Below are positions 3,197-12,932 of a stretch of DNA of 64,000 bases, in pieces. A program made the translations under genes and the position numbers. The notes beneath the pieces were generated by a model that saw only the letters and a list, made by a program, of their open reading frames with translations, had not been told where the DNA came from and did no database searches. How positions within the stretch are numbered: position 1 is the stretch's first letter; every line of letters starts with the position of its first letter. The DNA comes from Candidatus Asgardarchaeum abyssi (GTDB lineage: Archaea > Asgardarchaeota > Asgardarchaeia > Asgardarchaeales > Asgardarchaeaceae): assembly GCA_040225955.1 (NCBI GenBank), contig JBECUL010000005.1, positions 1 to 64,000 on the forward strand, read 5' to 3'.

Positions 3197-5083
3197 TTAT
3201 GTTTGAAATCTTTCTTTTTCTTTATGTGGGAAATACATTGCGTCGACAAGTTCTTTATAAAAGTCTTTATGACCACCAAGGTTTACATATCTTATTTTTC
3301 TTAAAATCGGTTCAATTTTCATTCTAAACCTTTTTGACAAGAGAAACATTTTAGCACCTGCAAGAGCTGTATTTCCCATAGGCTTTATATTTTTATTTGG
3401 AACATTTGGAAGAAGGCCGATTGTTTTTATACTGTCAACTCTAAGGTTGCTTCCAAATCCACCAGCTACATATACTGTATCAATATCCTCTGGTTTGACA
3501 TTTACATATCTTAGAAGCAAACATGTTGCAGCAAAAGCTGCGGCCTTAGCTAGTTGAATCTCTCTTATGTCTTTTTGAGTTAAAACGATATCTTTTCCAA
3601 TTGCTGTCTCGTTGGCGTAAGCAATTACAAATTCCATGTAGTCATCTCCTTTTCTAATTCTTTTAGTGTTTAGGTTCACATTAAATCTACCAGTATTATC
3701 GATGATTCCAACCTTTACCATTTCTGCTATAGCATTGATAATTCCAGTTCCACAAAGTCCAATCGGTTTCATATCACCAATAACACTATATTTTACATCA
3801 AACGTGTTAGGATCTATCTCAACATCTTCTATTGCTCCGTCAGATGCTCTTGTTCCAAACTTTATCTTTGCTCCCTCAAAAGCTGCACCAGCAGCAAACG
3901 ATGTTGCAATGAGCTCTCCTCTTTTGTTCAGCACTATTTCTCCATTTGTCCCTATATCTATCAAAAACTCGATCTTGTTTGGATGCTTATATATTCCAGT
4001 CGCAATGATTCCTGCTGTGATATCGCTACCTATGTAGCCAGCTATTAGCGGTGGTGTATATACTCTTGCATTTTCATTCCCTTTTAGCCCTAGCTTTTTA
4101 GCACTAACGTATGTAGAGCCTCTAAAGACCGGCATAAATGGGGCTCTTCCTAAACTTTCTGGGTTTATGCATAGAAAAAGGTGCATCATTACGGAATTAC
4201 CAACAGCAACAAACTCCTTAATATCCTCAAGCTCAATATTATTCCTTTTTATAAGTTGTGTTGTCAAATCGTTAATGCCTTTAATAACCAGACTGTTAAT
4301 TTGCTTCAAATTTTTCTCTGATTTCTGGGCGTATGAGATTCTAGAAATTATGTCCTCACCAAGAGATATTTGTGGGTTAAGCATAGATACCACATCTATT
4401 TCATTTCCAGAACTTAGATCGATGAGAGATGCAACAAGAGTTGTAGTACCAATATCTATTGCGATACCATAATTTGCATTTATTTTTTCGATATCCTCGA
4501 CATCAATAATCTCTGACGTGCCCTGAGAAATAGTAACAGAAAAACTTCTTTTGCCTTCGGAAAATAATTTCGATATCTTGCTTATTATATCAAGCGGTAT
4601 CATTTTAATCGAAATATCGGGATATACACGTTTTATTCCATCTGAAATTAGATCAAAAATAGCAACCCCAGTTTCCTCTTTGGGGACCTCTATAGCTACT
4701 GCGACTTTAACAATATTGGGATCTATCTTAAATTTCTCTGATATCCCCTTGATTACTATTTTTGGTTTGAGTTCCAGGCTTTCCCTAGGTATCTCTATTA
4801 TCAAGTCGCTTAAGGGCTTGACTTGACAGGAGAGTCTATACCCATTTTTGATTTCGTCTTCTAAAAGAAATCTTCTCTCAGAATCGGTTAATGGCGTAAC
4901 CTCTCCCTTAATAAGCTTTATTTTGCATTTTCCGCAAAGTCCATGACCTGCACATAAAGTTTTAATTCTAATTCCATTTTCTATTAGGGTCTCAAATAAT
5001 GTCTTATCTGTTGATGTTTGCAACGTTCTCTTAAGAGTTTTGATTTCTACGGATATGTTTTGGTTCATAGTCTCACTCAACAA
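3197..5083 (-). CDS. ASKHA-domain [2Fe-2S] reductive activator of corrinoid proteins (RACo/DUF4445 type)
   Basis: N-terminal CAGHGLCGKC...RLSC ferredoxin, plus DIGTT, DIGTNGE, DIREIQLAKAA and AGGFG motifs. Confidence 0.9.
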   Translation of the reverse strand: MLSETMNQNISVEIKTLKRTLQTSTDKTLFETLIENGIRIKTLCAGHGLCGKCKIKLIKGEVTPLTDSERRFLLEDEIKNGYRLSCQVKPLSDLIIEIPRESLELKPKIVIKGISEKFKIDPNIVKVAVAIEVPKEETGVAIFDLISDGIKRVYPDISIKMIPLDIISKISKLFSEGKRSFSVTISQGTSEIIDVEDIEKINANYGIAIDIGTTTLVASLIDLSSGNEIDVVSMLNPQISLGEDIISRISYAQKSEKNLKQINSLVIKGINDLTTQLIKRNNIELEDIKEFVAVGNSVMMHLFLCINPESLGRAPFMPVFRGSTYVSAKKLGLKGNENARVYTPPLIAGYIGSDITAGIIATGIYKHPNKIEFLIDIGTNGEIVLNKRGELIATSFAAGAAFEGAKIKFGTRASDGAIEDVEIDPNTFDVKYSVIGDMKPIGLCGTGIINAIAEMVKVGIIDNTGRFNVNLNTKRIRKGDDYMEFVIAYANETAIGKDIVLTQKDIREIQLAKAAAFAATCLLLRYVNVKPEDIDTVYVAGGFGSNLRVDSIKTIGLLPNVPNKNIKPMGNTALAGAKMFLLSKRFRMKIEPILRKIRYVNLGGHKDFYKELVDAMYFPHKEKERFQT

Positions 5084-5592
5084 ATAAGGTACAAAAGGTG
5101 TATATTATTGTTTTGATATTATTAGAATAAATAGTGATTACAAATTGAAAATTTTACAATAAGAAGTACAAAAATCAACAAATATTAAAGAAAATATGTA
5201 TGCTTGCACTAATGGCTAAGAGGGACAACAATAACAGTGTCGTCTTATTTGAAACTACTTAACTAGGTGGTTTTTTGCTAATTAAATATTTTATAGATTT
5301 CAGAATTTAACTATTGTAACAACCATATATTCCATTAACGGTTCTTTTTGATTTTTAAAAAGTTAATCTTTATCATTATGATTACTTTACTTTTTCACAA
5401 GATCTAAAATTGCATTTGGTAAAAAGAAAGAAAGAATTTTTTTATTTTTCAAAATTCGGAATATGATTACTTTGTTGGTGAAATTAAGCTGTTAGCTGTT
5501 ATTTTTAAAAAGAAAAGATGATATAACTCATTTTTTAAGAATATATATAAACGTTTCTAGAAATAAAAAGTCTACTGCCTAACAAATTACGT

Positions 5593-7062
5593 GTGGTGAG
5601 AATTTTGAGATTAAAGAGGAAAAGTATATTGCTTTGCGTATTTTTATTCTTATTATTGTTGATAAACTACGCAGTAATATCTTCTCAAGCAACAGATATA
5701 AGAGGTAGTGATATAAAGTTTAAGCCGCTAGCAAATAGTCATGCTATGTTTGGAACTAAAAGTAACTTACTTAGTGCTACTGTTAAGTCCTCAGGAGAAT
5801 TAAGGCCATATCGACCAATTATCATTTTACCCGAAGAAAATGGGACGGAAGACATACAACTTGTTAAATCCAGTGAGCCACCATATTATTACATATCGGC
5901 TAGAAAAATATTAAAGGCTCCTACTGCTACATTTATAAACAAGGAGGAAAAATACGTTATGTCTAATGGACTTATATCTGTGATTCCCTTGGTTCCATCA
6001 GTTTGGCAAAGAAGTTCAACTATTCGTGTGAAAGTTAGATTTGAGAATCATATGCCATTTCCATTTCACTACAGTGGCTATATCAAGTGCTATGTAAAGG
6101 ACACCTATTACTCTGGCTCTTCTAGGATTTGGGTTACTGAAGCTTTTTCTCAGAAATACGTCTCATTTACAATAGCACCATACTCCAGAAAAACAGTATC
6201 CTTATATGTTCACATAGGGTACACAACAGTTGGCTTGAAGAAGGTCGTTGTTGAAATTACGGGCACTTTACAACTAACATTCGATTTGGGATACAATTTC
6301 GTCCAAAAGGTAAATACAAATGAGCTGGGAACACCGACTAAGGTGAATAGCCTTGAGAACTATTTTGAACTGTCAGATCTCTTTCACTTCAACCAGTGGT
6401 CTGTTCTAAAGAAAGCAGCTAAGGCTATTGATGCTGGATACCAAGATAGAGTATCCATCAGAAACGCTGCACAAGACCTGATGAATTGGATATATTACCA
6501 CTTCATATACTATACAAGTAATGTTGCTCTCTTAAATTATACGGCGTCGGATATATGGTTGCTTTCGAACACTTATAATGAATATTACATAGGCGTTTGT
6601 GATGAGTATACTGTTCTTTATATTTCATTCGCTAGAGGAATGAATATACCAACGCGAATGATTGCTGTGTTCTTTGTAACCTATTTTTCTGGACAAATTG
6701 TGTTGGATGGAACAAGAGGCCCTCTTGGGCATATTTTTGCGGAAATATGGGATGGTAATACATGGGTTCATGTAGATGCCACAAATTACCTCTTTGACGA
6801 TCCTGACTACTATAAAGAACATGGTTATAATATAGGATTCATTTATGTCTTACAAGGAGCTGATGATGATTTAAGCAATTATGACGAGGAATGCGGCCCT
6901 GGTATAGTAGCATTAACTCATTATGGTACACGAATTCCTAATGTGGATATGTTAAATCGTAATGGTTATATTGATAAAAATTGGTGGAAGAGTGGCGATA
7001 TACTATATTATTTCGAATATAACGGTCCAAATTATGAAGAATACATTAACGGAAATGAGTGA
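5593..7062 (+). CDS. Secreted transglutaminase-like (Cys-His-Asp) protein
   Basis: Signal peptide. Catalytic motifs GVCDEY...ARGMNIPTR, GHIFAEIW and WVHVDAT. Confidence 0.85.
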   Translation: MVRILRLKRKSILLCVFLFLLLLINYAVISSQATDIRGSDIKFKPLANSHAMFGTKSNLLSATVKSSGELRPYRPIIILPEENGTEDIQLVKSSEPPYYYISARKILKAPTATFINKEEKYVMSNGLISVIPLVPSVWQRSSTIRVKVRFENHMPFPFHYSGYIKCYVKDTYYSGSSRIWVTEAFSQKYVSFTIAPYSRKTVSLYVHIGYTTVGLKKVVVEITGTLQLTFDLGYNFVQKVNTNELGTPTKVNSLENYFELSDLFHFNQWSVLKKAAKAIDAGYQDRVSIRNAAQDLMNWIYYHFIYYTSNVALLNYTASDIWLLSNTYNEYYIGVCDEYTVLYISFARGMNIPTRMIAVFFVTYFSGQIVLDGTRGPLGHIFAEIWDGNTWVHVDATNYLFDDPDYYKEHGYNIGFIYVLQGADDDLSNYDEECGPGIVALTHYGTRIPNVDMLNRNGYIDKNWWKSGDILYYFEYNGPNYEEYINGNE

Positions 7063-7111
7063 GTGATAATTATTAACTCAAAACAAAAATAAAGTTAGAG
7101 GGAAGATAAGT

Positions 7112-8194
7112 ATGGATATGAGAGTACCTATAATTCTTAGAAATAGAAAACTCTACACATCTGGAATTATCATCCTCTTTATTTTATTATTATCCAGCCC
7201 CACTATTTATTCAATGAATGAGGAAAATTATATTTCCGCGACACATATTTCAGATGATTACGACCCATTTTTTGGAGTCATTCTTCGCTATATTTCTTTA
7301 GATGGTCAGTTAGTTACTCTCTATGGAGGACAGATTTTTTATGATCCAATTATATGGTATACTGAAAGTAACGAGACAATGAGTTTCAAAAGCTTATGGA
7401 GCTACTATATGTTCTTGAACCTTGATTTTATAAGATTGGTGAAGATATCTGATGGCGTTTATAATATATCATGCAATCAATATGTGGTTAATTGCACGTA
7501 TGTTCTTAATCTGGTGAAAGATAATTATACTGCTGTTATTCTTTCAAATTACACTGGAAATGAATTCCATCAAGTTGTAATCATAGGCCATAACATAACG
7601 CCCCCTCAGCCTATCGTCAGAAATGGGACATACACGTATAAACCGATAAGCAAGTGGATTGAAGAGAAACGGATAGAATATCACGCATGCGATACATCGT
7701 CAAAATACAACCCTTCTAGAGCAATAAAGCTGGCAATTAAATTTCTAGAAAGTAGCGGATATCCCATTAATTTCAATATGTCGTGGCGGTCTGATTTTAT
7801 TGAGGGCATAGCAATAATTCCAAGAGAAGCAATCAACAAAACAGTAGCAGGAGACTTTAATTTCATCTGGAGTATTCGCATCATCAAAAGATTATCCATA
7901 AATGGTAGTGGTCATCTTCCATTCTACTCCGGACCTGAAAAAATTATTGCATTTTTTGTCTTTATTAGTGATGATGGGCAGTTGATCATGGTAAAGAAAA
8001 TGGGACCTATGACAGTTTTTAACGTGATCTTTGCCCAAGAGGAAGAAAACAACACATATAACGTAGATATTATTTACGATAGGAAAGACATTTTAACAAA
8101 AGTAAATTGCTCCATACTTATTAATATCTTAATAAGCACTATAGTCATCGCAATTCCAATTTCTCACAGAAAAAATAAAGCAAAACTGTATTGA
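7112..8194 (+). CDS. Exported protein, paralogue 1 of unnamed tandem family
   Basis: Signal or TM segment. Motifs NYTGNEF, SSKYNPSRAI, FNFIWSI, FISDDGQLI. Confidence 0.75.
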   Translation: MDMRVPIILRNRKLYTSGIIILFILLLSSPTIYSMNEENYISATHISDDYDPFFGVILRYISLDGQLVTLYGGQIFYDPIIWYTESNETMSFKSLWSYYMFLNLDFIRLVKISDGVYNISCNQYVVNCTYVLNLVKDNYTAVILSNYTGNEFHQVVIIGHNITPPQPIVRNGTYTYKPISKWIEEKRIEYHACDTSSKYNPSRAIKLAIKFLESSGYPINFNMSWRSDFIEGIAIIPREAINKTVAGDFNFIWSIRIIKRLSINGSGHLPFYSGPEKIIAFFVFISDDGQLIMVKKMGPMTVFNVIFAQEEENNTYNVDIIYDRKDILTKVNCSILINILISTIVIAIPISHRKNKAKLY

Positions 8195-8461
8195 AGTTAG
8201 GAACTTTTAACATAGCGATTTACATTTAAAAAGAGGGTACGACAATAAATAGTATATGTGCAAGAAAATATTATCACCGTACCCCTAAGATATATAAGAG
8301 TGAATCCTTTAAATGCAATGTCTTATTACAAAAAAATTGAACTTTAGAATTGAGCCCTCATACAATAGTCTTAATAATTGTGCTTAAAGGAAAAGACAAA
8401 GAAAGAAATAATATACCTACTATAAAATGAACATGCAATTGTCCACTGGAGGTAAATTTAA

Positions 8462-9392
8462 ATGAGAAGGTCTCTCATGAGGTGCAATGATTTTTTTGTC
8501 CTATTATTTTTTTCCACATTTTTAATACCCCAATTGACTATAGCCCACCCTAAGCTTGATGTTCAATATTTCGGCGAGGTAATCCATGGGAACATAATTG
8601 ACCGTCATCTCCATAAACGGAACCAATATAACCATCAGCGGCTTCACGTATAACATAAACGCAACATGGGACAGCCTAAATGCTACTAAAATGTCGTTCC
8701 CCTCGATTTGGGTAGAAAGGGCATTAGGCAGGTACCGTAATAACCTTTTACCAGTTCGTGATGATATTGTTGATGAATTACTTTCAAGAGGTAGAGCTTT
8801 AATCTTCGCAGCAGATTATAATGGTACCCATTATAAGGAAGTCATCATCGAGGGTAAAGCAACAGCAGTGTGGGGCATTCCATTAGATGCAGTTAACAGA
8901 TCTATTCCATCTATCTCATATAGTGCCTATCGTGTGATATATGAGGAGAAACGAACTGAAATTGCAAGTGAAAATGCCAGCTCTAAATACAACCCGTCTC
9001 TTGCTATTCTGAATGCTATCAGATTTTTGAATAATAAGAGCTTAGTTTTTGATAATGTGACAAAAGTGTTTTTGATTCCTCAGGAATATTTGACTGACGA
9101 GTATAAGAACTACGAGTTTGTGTGGTCCATGATATTCCTTCATGACCTAAACTCGTCTGAAGGTGCTGATCTTGAGTTAAACCATTTCATATTATCTCCA
9201 AACGCAACAATAATCCGACACATCCACTTAATCTTGAGAATAGTAGAAGGCGTGTCTCCCTGTCATGGATGCGAACCGCCCAAACAATATGATTATAGTC
9301 TCTACTTCTATGCAAGCATAGGAGGCATTATGGTTGCAACTCTACTAGTAGTAGTTTACGTCAGAATAACTAGAGAAAAGCATAAACACTAG
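8462..9392 (+). pseudogene. Paralogue 2 of the same family, split by a +1 frameshift near 8596
   Basis: GGAGGT RBS. The signal-peptide ORF 8462 joins ORF 8598 if one A is removed from CATAATTG. Family motifs SSKYNPSLAI, YEFVWSM, ILSPNATII. C-terminal TM. Confidence 0.7.
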
Positions 9393-9634
9393 AGTTTCCC
9401 TAAAATTCTCTCATATAAGTATTTAATTTAATCTCATTCTGTCCATATTTTATTTGTACACATTTAAGATTTTGTAATCAAAAAATTAGTATTCACTCTA
9501 TACTTCCATAATCAACATTTCTTTACAAAATATTTTAATAGATTAAGGTTATCTTTTGCATAATTAACATTGGTGATCAGATGCCCTAATACAGACGAGG
9601 GATATACATTTTGCTTGTGGTGACTTGTCACAAG

Positions 9635-10366
9635 ATGAAAATAGATGACATTTTATCTCACTTAGTGGTAATGGCCTTAATTATGCTTCTTGCTCTTTCT
9701 CCGTATTATCTGATATATTTCACAAGTTATAAAGGGATTACAGTTGAATATCTGTATGACGTAAATGATGAAACAAGTTATAAAAGATACATCACATTAA
9801 ATGGGATGCAAATACTTTTGTTAGGCCCATATGTACCGAAGAATTTCACATTCCACGATTTGAGTAATAGGACACATCATTACTATAACTATTGGCGAAC
9901 AGTTCTAAGATTTGTTGAGTACAATGGCTCAAAAATTGCCATCACACTTCTGAGTAATTACACAGGCAATTATTTCGACGAACTCGTGATATTCTTCAAC
10001 ACATACAGTCCAAAAGTTTACATAAAGCCTTTAACGCCATTGCAGTGCAATATTACCACATGGCGAGCTATCAATTGGACACTGTTTGTAGGTCAGAATG
10101 TATCATCAATATATAATCCGTCAAAGGTACTCTACAAGGTGATGCTATATTTAAAAAGGTATTATTATGGGTGCGAATATGTGACTGGGATTTATCTTGT
10201 TCCAAATTTCCTTCTGGAAAACTATAAGAGCTATGATTTTTTGTGGTACTTATTCTTAGGCAAAGCTTTAAATGGAACGCATGCAATGGAATACACTATA
10301 ATAGCTACTCCAAATGCAAGAATATTAAACATAACTTGTCATATTCATCGCTACGTTTTCGCATAA
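9635..10366 (+). CDS. Exported protein, paralogue 3
   Basis: GGTGA RBS before ATG 9635. Motifs NYTGNYF, SSIYNPSK, YDFLWYL, IATPNARIL. Confidence 0.75.
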   Translation: MKIDDILSHLVVMALIMLLALSPYYLIYFTSYKGITVEYLYDVNDETSYKRYITLNGMQILLLGPYVPKNFTFHDLSNRTHHYYNYWRTVLRFVEYNGSKIAITLLSNYTGNYFDELVIFFNTYSPKVYIKPLTPLQCNITTWRAINWTLFVGQNVSSIYNPSKVLYKVMLYLKRYYYGCEYVTGIYLVPNFLLENYKSYDFLWYLFLGKALNGTHAMEYTIIATPNARILNITCHIHRYVFA

Positions 10367-10514
10367 TTTTTCCATTCCTATTGTTTTTATCCGAGCCACA
10401 TGCGAATTTACTTTAATCTCCTAATATTATCCATGTAAGTAATTCTACAAATAGAGCGATCAATGTGTAATCAATAGTCCAAACTTGATAGTCACACGAA
10501 TAATGGTGAGTAAT

Positions 10515-11267
10515 ATGAAATCAAATTTTAAAATATATCAACTACTAAAAGTGTTTAGAAAAAATTTAGTTTTCTTGGCAATAATAGTGAGTATTTTTCT
10601 CTTGCCGTTACCTCTTCTCTTCATTTATAGTGATTCTAATATACCAAATGTAAGATATCTGTGCGATGATGACTATTACGGCATGAGAGTAATTCAGATA
10701 AACGACATGAATATAACACTAGCAAAAAATAACATATTTGACAACTTTACCTTCTGTGACATTAATGGCACGAAGCATGTTTATTATAACAATTTCTGGC
10801 TTTTCGAATACAGGCGTATAGAAGGTAATGAATCAAGGTTTACAATTGTTTTCTCAGTCAACTATACAGGCCACCATTTCGAACAGCTTATTGTATGGTT
10901 CAAAGCTGACAATCTCACAAATTCGCAGACACCTTTTTATAATAGCTTAAATCGCAATTGGCGTGCAATAAACTGGACTATTATCACAACGGAAGATATT
11001 TACTCTCAGTATAATCCTGCTAACGCACTTTATAAGGCTGCTCATTTTGTGACTCAGAATTATTACGGCTTCTCTAGAGTTAATCTGATATGCTTAATCC
11101 CTAATTATTTACTAAATGGGAATTTTAAGGAATTCAGCTTTATATGGATGATCTGGCTGTGGAAACAATATAACGCAACACATTCTCTCGGATACTCAAT
11201 AATCCTCTCACCAGATGCACAAATAATAAGCTTCAACTACACAATAAACCAGTATATATTTGGATAA
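10515..11267 (+). CDS. Exported protein, paralogue 4
   Basis: GGTGAG RBS. Motifs NYTGHHF, WRAINWT (shared with paralogue 3), YNPAN, FSFIWMI, ILSPDAQII. Confidence 0.75.
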   Translation: MKSNFKIYQLLKVFRKNLVFLAIIVSIFLLPLPLLFIYSDSNIPNVRYLCDDDYYGMRVIQINDMNITLAKNNIFDNFTFCDINGTKHVYYNNFWLFEYRRIEGNESRFTIVFSVNYTGHHFEQLIVWFKADNLTNSQTPFYNSLNRNWRAINWTIITTEDIYSQYNPANALYKAAHFVTQNYYGFSRVNLICLIPNYLLNGNFKEFSFIWMIWLWKQYNATHSLGYSIILSPDAQIISFNYTINQYIFG

Positions 11268-11384: not shown

Positions 11385-12932
11385 TTATTGAAGATATTTT
11401 TTAATTAGATTATCGGTGAGACCGTTATTTTCTGCAATTTCTCTGAAGACCTCTGAACTTTTACGAGGCTTTCTTTCTTTAGTTTTTAAGTCTACTTCGA
11501 TAAGCCCAAAACGTTTACTAAAGCCGTGAGCCCATTCGTAGTTATCTGTCAGTGCCCAATGAAGATATCCATCAACATCAATTTTATCTTCTTTAATAGC
11601 AAGCTCTAATTGATGAACATGTTGGACTATGAACCATGATCTTAAGACATCTTCGGCGTCGGCAAGTCCATTTTCAGTTACTATTATAGGCTTATTGTAT
11701 TTTGCTGCAATATTTAGGCTTTCTCTTAATCCCTCTGGATATACTTCCCAACCGAAATCTGTTGTTGGGCGATTATCAAGGGATTTACTTCGTGGCTCGC
11801 ACTCACCTCCATATCCAGCAACAAATTCAAAACTTGCAAGTTCAAATCCTGGAACTAAAGGCTTTTCTGAATGTTTTACAACAAATCTTACATAATAATT
11901 AACACCAATCCAATCCAATTTGTTTCTAAATGACTTAAGCTTTTCATCGTCAGAGATTTCCATATTTAAATCTAGGTCCACTTCGCCTTTAACTATCGAA
12001 TTTAAGAGCCATCTGTTCCTCATATAGTCAACTATTTTTGCTGCTTGAATGTCTCTTTCGTCGTCCTTTTTAAGCGGATGTACTGGTGTAAAATTATGAA
12101 TTATTCCAACGAATGCAGCCTCGTCGCTATCATCATCTGCCTTGATGGTATCCCATTTCTTTATAGTGTCATATGCACAAACATGGGCATTTGTCAGGTT
12201 AACTATAGCTGCCAAATAACCCTCTGCTGCTGCAACGCCAGGAGGAAATCCAGCCTCTGGTACTAAATATCCAGCTTCTGCAACAACAAAGGGCTCATTA
12301 AGTGTAGCCCACATATCAACGAGATCTCCAAAGAGATTTGCCACAACTGATACATATTTAATAAATTCGATAACTGTTTCTGGGTCTACCCATCCAAGCG
12401 GTCCTTCTTCTAAATTTGTTCTTCTTGCAACAATCGGGTCATGAATCCATATAGGTAATGTGAAATGGTTCAAACAAACTATTACTTTTATTCCTTGCTC
12501 TCGTAAATCTTTTATGATTTCTCTATAATGGTTCACCGCACTTCTATTTATATGGGTAAGCAGCCTCTTCATATCTTCCTCTTCAACAACTATACTATCA
12601 AAAAGCCCTGTGTCTTCATTCTCCTTAACATAAACTTCAACATCGCGTGTTGACATTGCCAATATACGACTCCACTCAATACCTATACGATACGCATTCA
12701 TCCCTAGTTTCTTTATAAGCTCATGATCCTTCTTATAAAGCTCCCAGTAATTTATTCCATGCTCCGGCAGATCACCGCTAACCAACTTTTTCTTAATATT
12801 TTCTTCATCATGAACCCAGGCCCACCAATCACTATTCGAATCTATGAATTTCCCTTCTGGATTACCCATTTCAAATTGAAAACCACTCTCTGAAGCACCC
12901 CATAAAAATCTCTTTTTCATCCTTCTCACCAA
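11385..12932 (-). CDS. Glycoside hydrolase family 1 beta-glycosidase (archaeal LacS/BgaS type)
   Basis: FLWGASESGFQFEMG, TLNEP acid/base, VTENG nucleophile, DNYEW. Confidence 0.93.
   Translation of the reverse strand: MVRRMKKRFLWGASESGFQFEMGNPEGKFIDSNSDWWAWVHDEENIKKKLVSGDLPEHGINYWELYKKDHELIKKLGMNAYRIGIEWSRILAMSTRDVEVYVKENEDTGLFDSIVVEEEDMKRLLTHINRSAVNHYREIIKDLREQGIKVIVCLNHFTLPIWIHDPIVARRTNLEEGPLGWVDPETVIEFIKYVSVVANLFGDLVDMWATLNEPFVVAEAGYLVPEAGFPPGVAAAEGYLAAIVNLTNAHVCAYDTIKKWDTIKADDDSDEAAFVGIIHNFTPVHPLKKDDERDIQAAKIVDYMRNRWLLNSIVKGEVDLDLNMEISDDEKLKSFRNKLDWIGVNYYVRFVVKHSEKPLVPGFELASFEFVAGYGGECEPRSKSLDNRPTTDFGWEVYPEGLRESLNIAAKYNKPIIVTENGLADAEDVLRSWFIVQHVHQLELAIKEDKIDVDGYLHWALTDNYEWAHGFSKRFGLIEVDLKTKERKPRKSSEVFREIAENNGLTDNLIKKYLQ

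Follow-up and report, generated by a model that had tools for sequence, protein, structure and literature searches.

A putatively secreted transglutaminase-fold enzyme and a predicted membrane-anchored partner recur as a gene pair in Asgard archaea, with the partner gene amplified in Candidatus Asgardarchaeum abyssi

Background

Enzymes held by a dedicated partner are known from several systems: SleB works with YpeB, papain-like peptidases are bound by cystatins, and PepSY propeptides act in a comparable way. A papain-like core is common to transglutaminases and papain-like peptidases. At pilus loci, tandem paralogous surface proteins are encoded beside one cysteine transpeptidase. We analysed here a stretch of 64,000 nucleotides (nt) from Candidatus Asgardarchaeum abyssi (assembly GCA_040225955.1, contig JBECUL010000005.1, positions 1 to 64,000; hereafter the window), in which a gene for a putatively secreted transglutaminase-fold enzyme is followed by four tandem paralogues of an unnamed protein family, called p1 to p4 in gene order after the enzyme. 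The pairing of such an enzyme with such a partner recurs across Asgard archaea, and therefore the two proteins probably work together at the cell surface.

By sequence and catalytic triad, the enzyme belongs to the Makarova-Aravind-Koonin superfamily of archaeal and bacterial transglutaminase homologues (PF01841, PF04473), from which it is set apart by a narrow subfamily with an immunoglobulin (Ig)-like sandwich and a Y-x-G-P-N-x-Y tail. LapG, with its substrate LapA, offers a further likeness, as an extracytoplasmic transglutaminase-fold Cys-His-Asp enzyme acting on a surface protein; however, LapG is of another subfamily, is regulated by LapD and cyclic di-GMP, and has a giant RTX adhesin as its substrate, and no homology of the partner family to the LapG/LapA system was found. 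For the partner, the nearest comparison is with the FTP-PepSY propeptides of M4 and M36 (PDB 3nqz, 4k90) and with YpeB, which works with SleB (5boi): a helix on a four-stranded sheet is common to all, with structural matches at Z 5.7-7.3. Like YpeB, the partner is predicted to be extracellular and membrane-tethered, and like the PepSY proteins it is encoded with the enzyme that it is thought to hold. In contrast, it has one such domain, preceded by an all-beta domain of ~115 amino acids (aa), it is a separate gene and not a propeptide, and its client would be a Cys-His-Asp transglutaminase-fold enzyme rather than a metallopeptidase or transglycosylase. A precedent for this kind of reasoning is the prediction by Makarova et al. 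(2019; PMC6393860) that PepSY-like dark-matter proteins of archaea act as protease inhibitors.

The enzyme and its four tandem paralogues

The list of open reading frames (ORFs) places five of them at 5593-11267, all on the plus strand:

5593..7062, plus strand: putatively secreted transglutaminase-fold enzyme, 489 aa (PF01841 match, triad, hydrophobic N-terminus)
7112..8194, plus strand: p1, 360 aa (signal, ectodomain with an insertion, C-terminal membrane anchor, basic tail)
8462..9392, plus strand: p2, of the canonical family type but broken (signal piece 8462-8653; body and C-terminal anchor 8598-9392)
9611..10366, plus strand: p3, 251 aa (ectodomain after a long hydrophobic N-terminal helix; C-terminal stalk and anchor missing)
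10485..11267, plus strand: p4, 260 aa (layout as p3; the copy modelled with AlphaFold)

The first protein had been read, in an earlier note made from the letters alone, as a signal-peptide protein with a transglutaminase fold and an intact Cys-His-Asp triad, and Pfam bears this out. Indeed, PF01841 (Transglut_core) matches at 41.2 bits for a cut-off of 23 (E 2.3e-10), and the triad stands in order as Cys336 (GVCDEY), His380 (GHIFAEIW) and Asp395 (VHVDAT). Of 25 comparable related sequences, 23 keep the triad, and the copies of genome G322 lack the His. At these two G322 loci (L053 and L057), hmmalign places Phe/Asp-Trp-Phe-Trp where the catalytic His is expected, while the Cys, the Asp and the partner gene are kept, so these copies may be inactive pseudo-enzymes. 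The N-terminal signal of the window enzyme consists of hydrophobic residues 4-34, and its N-x-S/T sequons number 2 for 4.2 expected. The AlphaFold model, built from a nine-sequence alignment, is of low confidence (predicted local distance difference test, pLDDT, 47.6) and usable only for the Ig-like beta-sandwich at ~125-245, which matches many Ig-like domains with Z 8-9.4. Together with the conserved C-terminal Y-x-G-P-N-x-Y tail, this sandwich marks a subfamily of 7 clusters among 5.8 billion proteins; the NCBI label on the homologues is Candidatus Asgardarchaeia archaeon, and a PDB sequence search gave no match for the enzyme. Given its signal peptide, Ig-like sandwich and Cys-His-Asp core, the enzyme is predicted to be a protease or a transamidase.

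The earlier note had also described the four following genes as co-oriented paralogues of an unnamed exported family with five ordered motifs. Their homology is better than chance when compared by phmmer with all 6969 ORFs of the genome (E 1e-39 for p3-p4, 1e-8 to 1e-10 for p2 against p3 or p4, and ~1e-6 for p1-p2), p1 being tied to p3 and p4 via p2 only, and all five motifs fall in register in an alignment of the four. As four intact tandem genes, the array stands for p1, p3 and p4 but not for p2, which is split by a 2-nt frameshift, and the family is not confined to these copies, as further members lie on other contigs of the genome (see below).

The individual copies differ in layout. The p1 gene starts 49 nt after the enzyme gene, its product has transmembrane-like segments at 14-36 and 327-353 and 12 sequons for 3.4 expected, and its orthologue P0001 is 97% identical. 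The p2 gene carries a 2-nt deletion at ~8604 relative to L015, a contig from a near-identical metagenome strain (98% identical) with the same array, so that its signal piece and its body lie in different frames; the site at 8598-8610 reads CGTTTCAT in L015 and CGTCAT in the window, and either an error in assembly or a genuine pseudogene may account for the deletion. The intact form has 310 aa (P0002 and L015:2711-3643), and 11 sequons were counted in p2 for 2.5 expected. For p4, an alternative gene-caller start at 10503 yields 254 aa (P0007). Both p3 and p4 stop right after the last conserved strand, whereas p1 and p2 go on to a C-terminal transmembrane helix and a basic tail.

Two observations concern the comparison of the strains. 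In the L015 enzyme gene (L015:1-1278, compared with window 5753-7062), indels of 1 nt, 7 nt and 1 nt occur and p1-p3 are intact; taken with the p2 frameshift of the window, different genes of the cluster thus look broken in the two assemblies. For p1, all 12 amino-acid differences between the window and L015, together with a 9-nt indel, fall within residues 2-42 (7112-7240), that is, the signal/anchor region, and in the other ~320 codons there are 6 changes, all synonymous.

All four paralogues have an excess of N-x-S/T sequons (9-12 for 2.2-3.5 expected), several of them at positions conserved across the family, which suggests that the proteins are exported and glycosylated. In the 33-sequence family alignment, Tyr, Gly, Asn, Pro and Trp provide the nearly invariant positions, and there is no invariant Gln or Lys. 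The canonical members have a C-terminal transmembrane helix followed by a basic tail, which might serve as a sorting signal of the sortase type and which p3 and p4 lack. A Cys-x(0-2)-Cys motif is conserved in the stalk of these members, 12-20 residues before the anchor (~265-275 in P0002), and is likewise absent from p3 and p4; it might be a disulfide, a metal-binding motif or a processing site.

These features bear on the alternative raised in the earlier note, that the paralogues are substrates of the enzyme. In this possible but doubtful reading, they would be dedicated substrates that the enzyme cross-links (through Gln-Lys isopeptide bonds) or clips in order to build, remodel or release a glycoprotein layer, by analogy with sortases and their pilin genes or with LapG and LapA. 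Indeed, an intact thiol triad suits acyl transfer, the partners look like abundant surface glycoproteins with a signal, a Cys-x(0-2)-Cys stalk, a transmembrane helix and a basic tail, and tandem surface paralogues beside one thiol transpeptidase recall the pilus loci. However, substrates of this kind are at odds with the lack of an invariant Gln or Lys in the family, and with p3 and p4, which are without the C-terminal region.

Recurrence of the enzyme-partner pair

Members of the partner family are also found on contigs C99 and C9 of the same genome (the window lies on C5), in each case directly 3', on the same strand, of a gene for a ~510-aa putatively secreted PF01841 protein with the same triad, which is 32-40% identical to the window enzyme over the BLAST-aligned regions. 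Contig C185, of 1.6 kb, has a broken member. Two more metagenome contigs, L016 and L017, carry the enzyme gene, a single member after it and then unrelated genes. The earlier note had proposed to check for linkage to transglutaminase genes, and the check was positive throughout the sample, which comprised the three loci of the genome (C5, C99 and C9), the strain L015 and the contigs L016 and L017: wherever the DNA upstream of a full-length member is visible, a related transglutaminase-fold gene precedes it, either directly or at the head of a tandem array. Because one enzyme with one partner is the usual unit, the four-copy array is a local expansion, specific to the source strain group. It may be composite, with the enzyme and p1 placed beside an older p2 and with a p3-p4 duplication thereafter. 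A repeat scan of the locus yielded a single element, of 24 nt and 79% identical between its copies at 9412-9435 and 10397-10420, just 3' of the p2 and p3 stop codons and hence 5' of p3 and p4, which is consistent with the duplication of p3 and p4 along with their upstream DNA.

Two other contigs of the genome carry related remains. Contig C25 (25566-27376, minus strand) has a fourth enzyme paralogue, interrupted by a frameshift, and after it a 100-aa proline-rich membrane ORF, perhaps the stalk and anchor left over from a lost partner. The broken pieces on C185 (483-1019, L007) are closest to the C9 copy and lie beside a small AbrB/SpoVT-like ORF.

The earlier note had compared the layout to an effector with a poly-immunity array. 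We consider it very unlikely that the enzyme is a secreted antagonistic effector, that its partner is a self-protecting inhibitor and that the four copies are a diversified immunity array. Fast divergence of both enzyme and partner, several paralogous pairs in the genome, an inhibitor-like fold beside a hydrolase-like enzyme and the differences between strains (frameshifts in the L015 enzyme and in p2 of the window, and the cluster of amino-acid changes in p1) would all fit such a system. On the other side, outside the strain group there is one enzyme with one partner and there are no orphan copies, the enzyme has a plain Sec signal with no trafficking or toxin-cassette architecture, PADLOC and PHROGs gave no match and no toxin, defence or phage family was hit, the p1 changes all lie in the signal/anchor region with none on the ectodomain, and the L016 pair is not strictly cognate. 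The comparison is weakened in particular by the 1:1 unit found elsewhere, the lack of a toxin or defence signature and the non-cognate pairing.

On a larger scale, a profile of the enzyme found 21 places in 13 of the 400 genomes of the phylum, and at 14 of the 21 (source genome counted) a partner of 265-360 aa with signal and anchor is encoded directly downstream. In family f31, the partner gene follows directly on the same strand at 11 of 14 places, with a gap of at most 12 nt or an overlap, and a twelfth such pair is found 3' of an enzyme fragment. Partners in f31 have 265-335 aa, an N-terminal signal, a C-terminal transmembrane helix, a basic tail and 5-14 sequons; they have no Pfam match and are not matched by the hidden Markov model (HMM) of the window family. 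When their alignment (A9) was compared with that of the family by hhalign, a score of 42.0 was obtained (P 5.7e-5, probability 66%), with the match centred on the YNGTxFxE hairpin; none of 30 column-shuffled controls exceeded 16.3, and the reversed alignment reached 18.2. In addition, a greedy alignment of the two sets is collinear from the helix over the Trp strand and the NGT-I-L hairpin to the stalk and anchor. The f31 partners are thus probably remote homologues of the window family.

Given this pattern, an explanation in which the two genes encode co-expressed envelope components, without direct interaction and with only their regulation or secretion route in common, appears improbable. 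It is true that surface-protein genes often cluster and that the neighbours of related enzymes vary in type. Nevertheless, the same order, strand and near-zero spacing recur at no fewer than 14 places in three Asgard families, and the pairing persists through divergence down to the limit of detection. The strict 1:1 ratio with translational coupling is also more typical of stoichiometric complexes than of an enzyme with its substrates. In contrast, the exceptions among the 21 places lend something to the substrate reading: they comprise a propeller-transglutaminase fusion in Njordarchaeota, two loci with anchored proteins of ~990 aa and one locus with none of these, and the fact that related enzymes adjoin other anchored surface proteins of different folds suits an enzyme that acts on its neighbour. 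The Njordarchaeota locus (L018:1175-5339, metagenome-assembled genome contig JAHQWF010000010) holds an enzyme gene, then a beta-propeller (PF13360, PQQ_2) fused to a second transglutaminase core, then a protein with similar N-terminal repeats and no significant Pfam match.

A counterpart was found outside Asgard archaea. Scanning species genomes with the enzyme alignment gave homologues in Methanolobus, Methanohalophilus and other Methanosarcinaceae, and at 4 of 6 of these loci a signal-peptide protein of ~300 aa is encoded directly downstream of the enzyme. In three of them (L019, L020 and L021) this protein ends in a PGF-CTERM anchor and has weak, membrane-proximal PepSY matches (E 0.01-0.09), and in L023 it matches PepSY at 27.6 bits for a cut-off of 24, as well as DUF4901. 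In layout the two lineages agree, each having a putatively secreted enzyme and then an anchored protein whose PepSY-type domain adjoins the anchor, although hhalign detected no similarity between the Asgard family and the PepSY-bearing Methanosarcinaceae partners. These neighbours are independent contextual support for a PepSY-like reading of the Asgard partner. Moreover, they count against the substrate reading, as the anchor of the Methanosarcinaceae partner is a PGF-CTERM signal, which archaeosortase handles and the enzyme does not. The Methanosarcinaceae pair also looks like a conserved and undescribed methanogen pair in its own right.

Fold of the partner

The AlphaFold model of p4, built from the 33-sequence alignment, has a pLDDT of 85 and a predicted template modelling score of 0.75. 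It consists of a transmembrane helix (11-39), a nine-strand beta domain (56-169), and a helix (179-191) with four strands extending to 256. The C-terminal domain (171-259) has the order H-E-(h)-E-E-E, with the helix against a four-stranded antiparallel sheet, and reaches a pLDDT of ~95. It was the sole part matched in an exhaustive VIA-align search, whose top match was the cystatin-fold design 4r80 (Z 8.9, root-mean-square deviation 2.4 A, 72 of 76 residues), followed by CD1622 (Z 7.7) and the PepSY domains of YpeB (Z 7.3) and YpmB (Z 6.7); the M4 and M36 propeptides and NTF2-like proteins were also matched, as were several natural cystatins at Z 5.5-6.5, some in complexes with papain or falcipain.

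The resemblance to PepSY modules proposed by the earlier note thus stands at the level of the fold, and for the C-terminal third only (YpeB and YpmB at the Z values above, which count as middling by the tool's own scale), and it finds no backing from Foldseek or from PF03413. Indeed, PF03413 matched none of the paralogues at E <=1, and a six-frame scan of the whole genome with this family gave nothing while the control genomes were matched. As for the cystatins (MEROPS I25), the best structural match of the partner has their fold, but the partner is without the QxVxG and PW motifs in the 33-sequence alignment, there is no cystatin match in Pfam, and the helix lacks the N-terminal cystatin strand that would precede it. 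Altogether, the modelled C-terminal domain is predicted to have a cystatin/PepSY-like helix-plus-sheet fold, and we claim likeness of fold and not membership of a family because a Z below ~8 can reflect a common arrangement. From the order of the strands, the conserved motifs are predicted to gather on one edge of the domain, with YNP where the helix begins, IP where strand 1 ends, FxW where strand 2 begins and SPN/DG in the last hairpin, and this edge would correspond to the cystatin wedge.

Distribution of the partner family

The partner family is rare. The paralogues had no match in Pfam, NCBIfam, PADLOC or PHROGs, nor in a PDB sequence search, and a search of the ESM Atlas with the whole protein and with the C-terminal domain returned noise-level scores or no match. 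In a profile search of 1.84 billion representative proteins, 29 clusters of 65-378 aa were found, and none of the matches in this size range was a fusion of enzyme and partner. Note that a protein of 801 aa was considered as a fusion or a member and was set aside, its 12 short matched stretches being taken as spurious. A word-indexed search of 5.8 billion proteins gave five family matches. Within the phylum, the family is present in 1 of 400 genomes, the source genome alone, and with the narrower family alignment as query it was found at 3 metagenome loci and in no other species genome. A full-text search of the searchable literature gave no account of a transglutaminase-PepSY pair, of this family or of an anchored partner of the enzyme.

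Role of the partner

Our results tentatively favour, at somewhat below even confidence, a conserved two-gene cell-surface module of Asgard archaea in which the partner binds the enzyme outside the cell and tethers, stabilises or inhibits it. The first gene would encode a secreted enzyme of transglutaminase/papain-like fold, and the second, usually coupled to it in translation, a membrane-anchored type-I protein of ~300 aa for which heavy N-glycosylation is predicted, with an ectodomain made of an all-beta domain and then a membrane-proximal helix-plus-four-strand (cystatin/PepSY-like) domain. By binding the enzyme extracellularly, the partner would tether it to the membrane and hold or regulate its active site. 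In the window, the partner gene would have been amplified to four diverged copies, two of which have lost the C-terminal anchor and one of which is frameshifted in the assembly. The most likely role of the partner is that of an anchored keeper, whether tether, inhibitor or chaperone, on account of the tightly coupled 1:1 pairing, the anchored topology, the membrane-proximal fold of a type known from keepers and the conserved triad. Of these elements, the genes with their repeated adjacency, the catalytic triad, the family and the fold prediction are shown, and export, glycosylation, physical binding and the direction in which activity is regulated are inferred.

Several observations weigh against this proposal. 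On the side of the fold, Foldseek against the PDB gave no match at E <=0.001, the Z values lie in a range that the tool calls common for unrelated helix-plus-sheet arrangements, and the paralogues have no PepSY or cystatin signal in their sequences. On the side of the pairing, no member follows the fourth enzyme copy (C25), and co-inheritance of partner and enzyme is not strict: on L016, the partner shares 69% identity with p2, but the enzyme only 32% with that of C5 and 50% with that of C99, being closest to the enzymes of C99 and C9. In addition, some related enzymes pair with neighbours of other types, namely a PQQ-like beta-propeller in Njordarchaeota and anchored proteins of ~990 aa in genome G316.

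A bolder and quite unlikely idea is that the pair forms a covalent machine for building or editing the envelope, peculiar to Asgard archaea, in which the enzyme polymerises the partner glycoprotein into a cross-linked coat or, like the PNGase branch of its fold, acts on conserved glycosylated Asn sites of the partner, and in which the four copies would be alternative coat subunits.

Setting of the locus

The five-ORF block is flanked by a gene for a RACo-type corrinoid activase (3197-5083, minus strand) and by one for a GH1 glycosidase (11385-12932, minus strand). One further feature was delimited from the GC content and the ORF list:

5084..5592, plus strand: AT-rich non-coding leader between the divergent RACo gene and the enzyme gene

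The AT-rich leader of ~500 bp before the enzyme, pointed out by the earlier note, is confirmed by a GC content of 0.256 at 5001-5500, compared with ~0.32-0.37 in the neighbouring windows. It contains no ORF of 60 aa or more and presumably holds the promoter.

Conclusions

Asgard archaea are the closest prokaryotic relatives of eukaryotes, and little is known about how their surface is built and controlled. Our analysis defines an unnamed partner family and a probable wider superfamily of partners, as well as a recurrent and coupled pairing with a triad-intact enzyme in at least three Asgard families, to which a PepSY-bearing pair of methanogens corresponds. Should the partner tether or inhibit the enzyme, the principle of the PepSY/cystatin keeper would extend to a new class of enzymes and to a new domain of life. 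Should it serve as the substrate, the pair would be a candidate system for covalent surface assembly. Either outcome would rest on a small and expressible system of two proteins.

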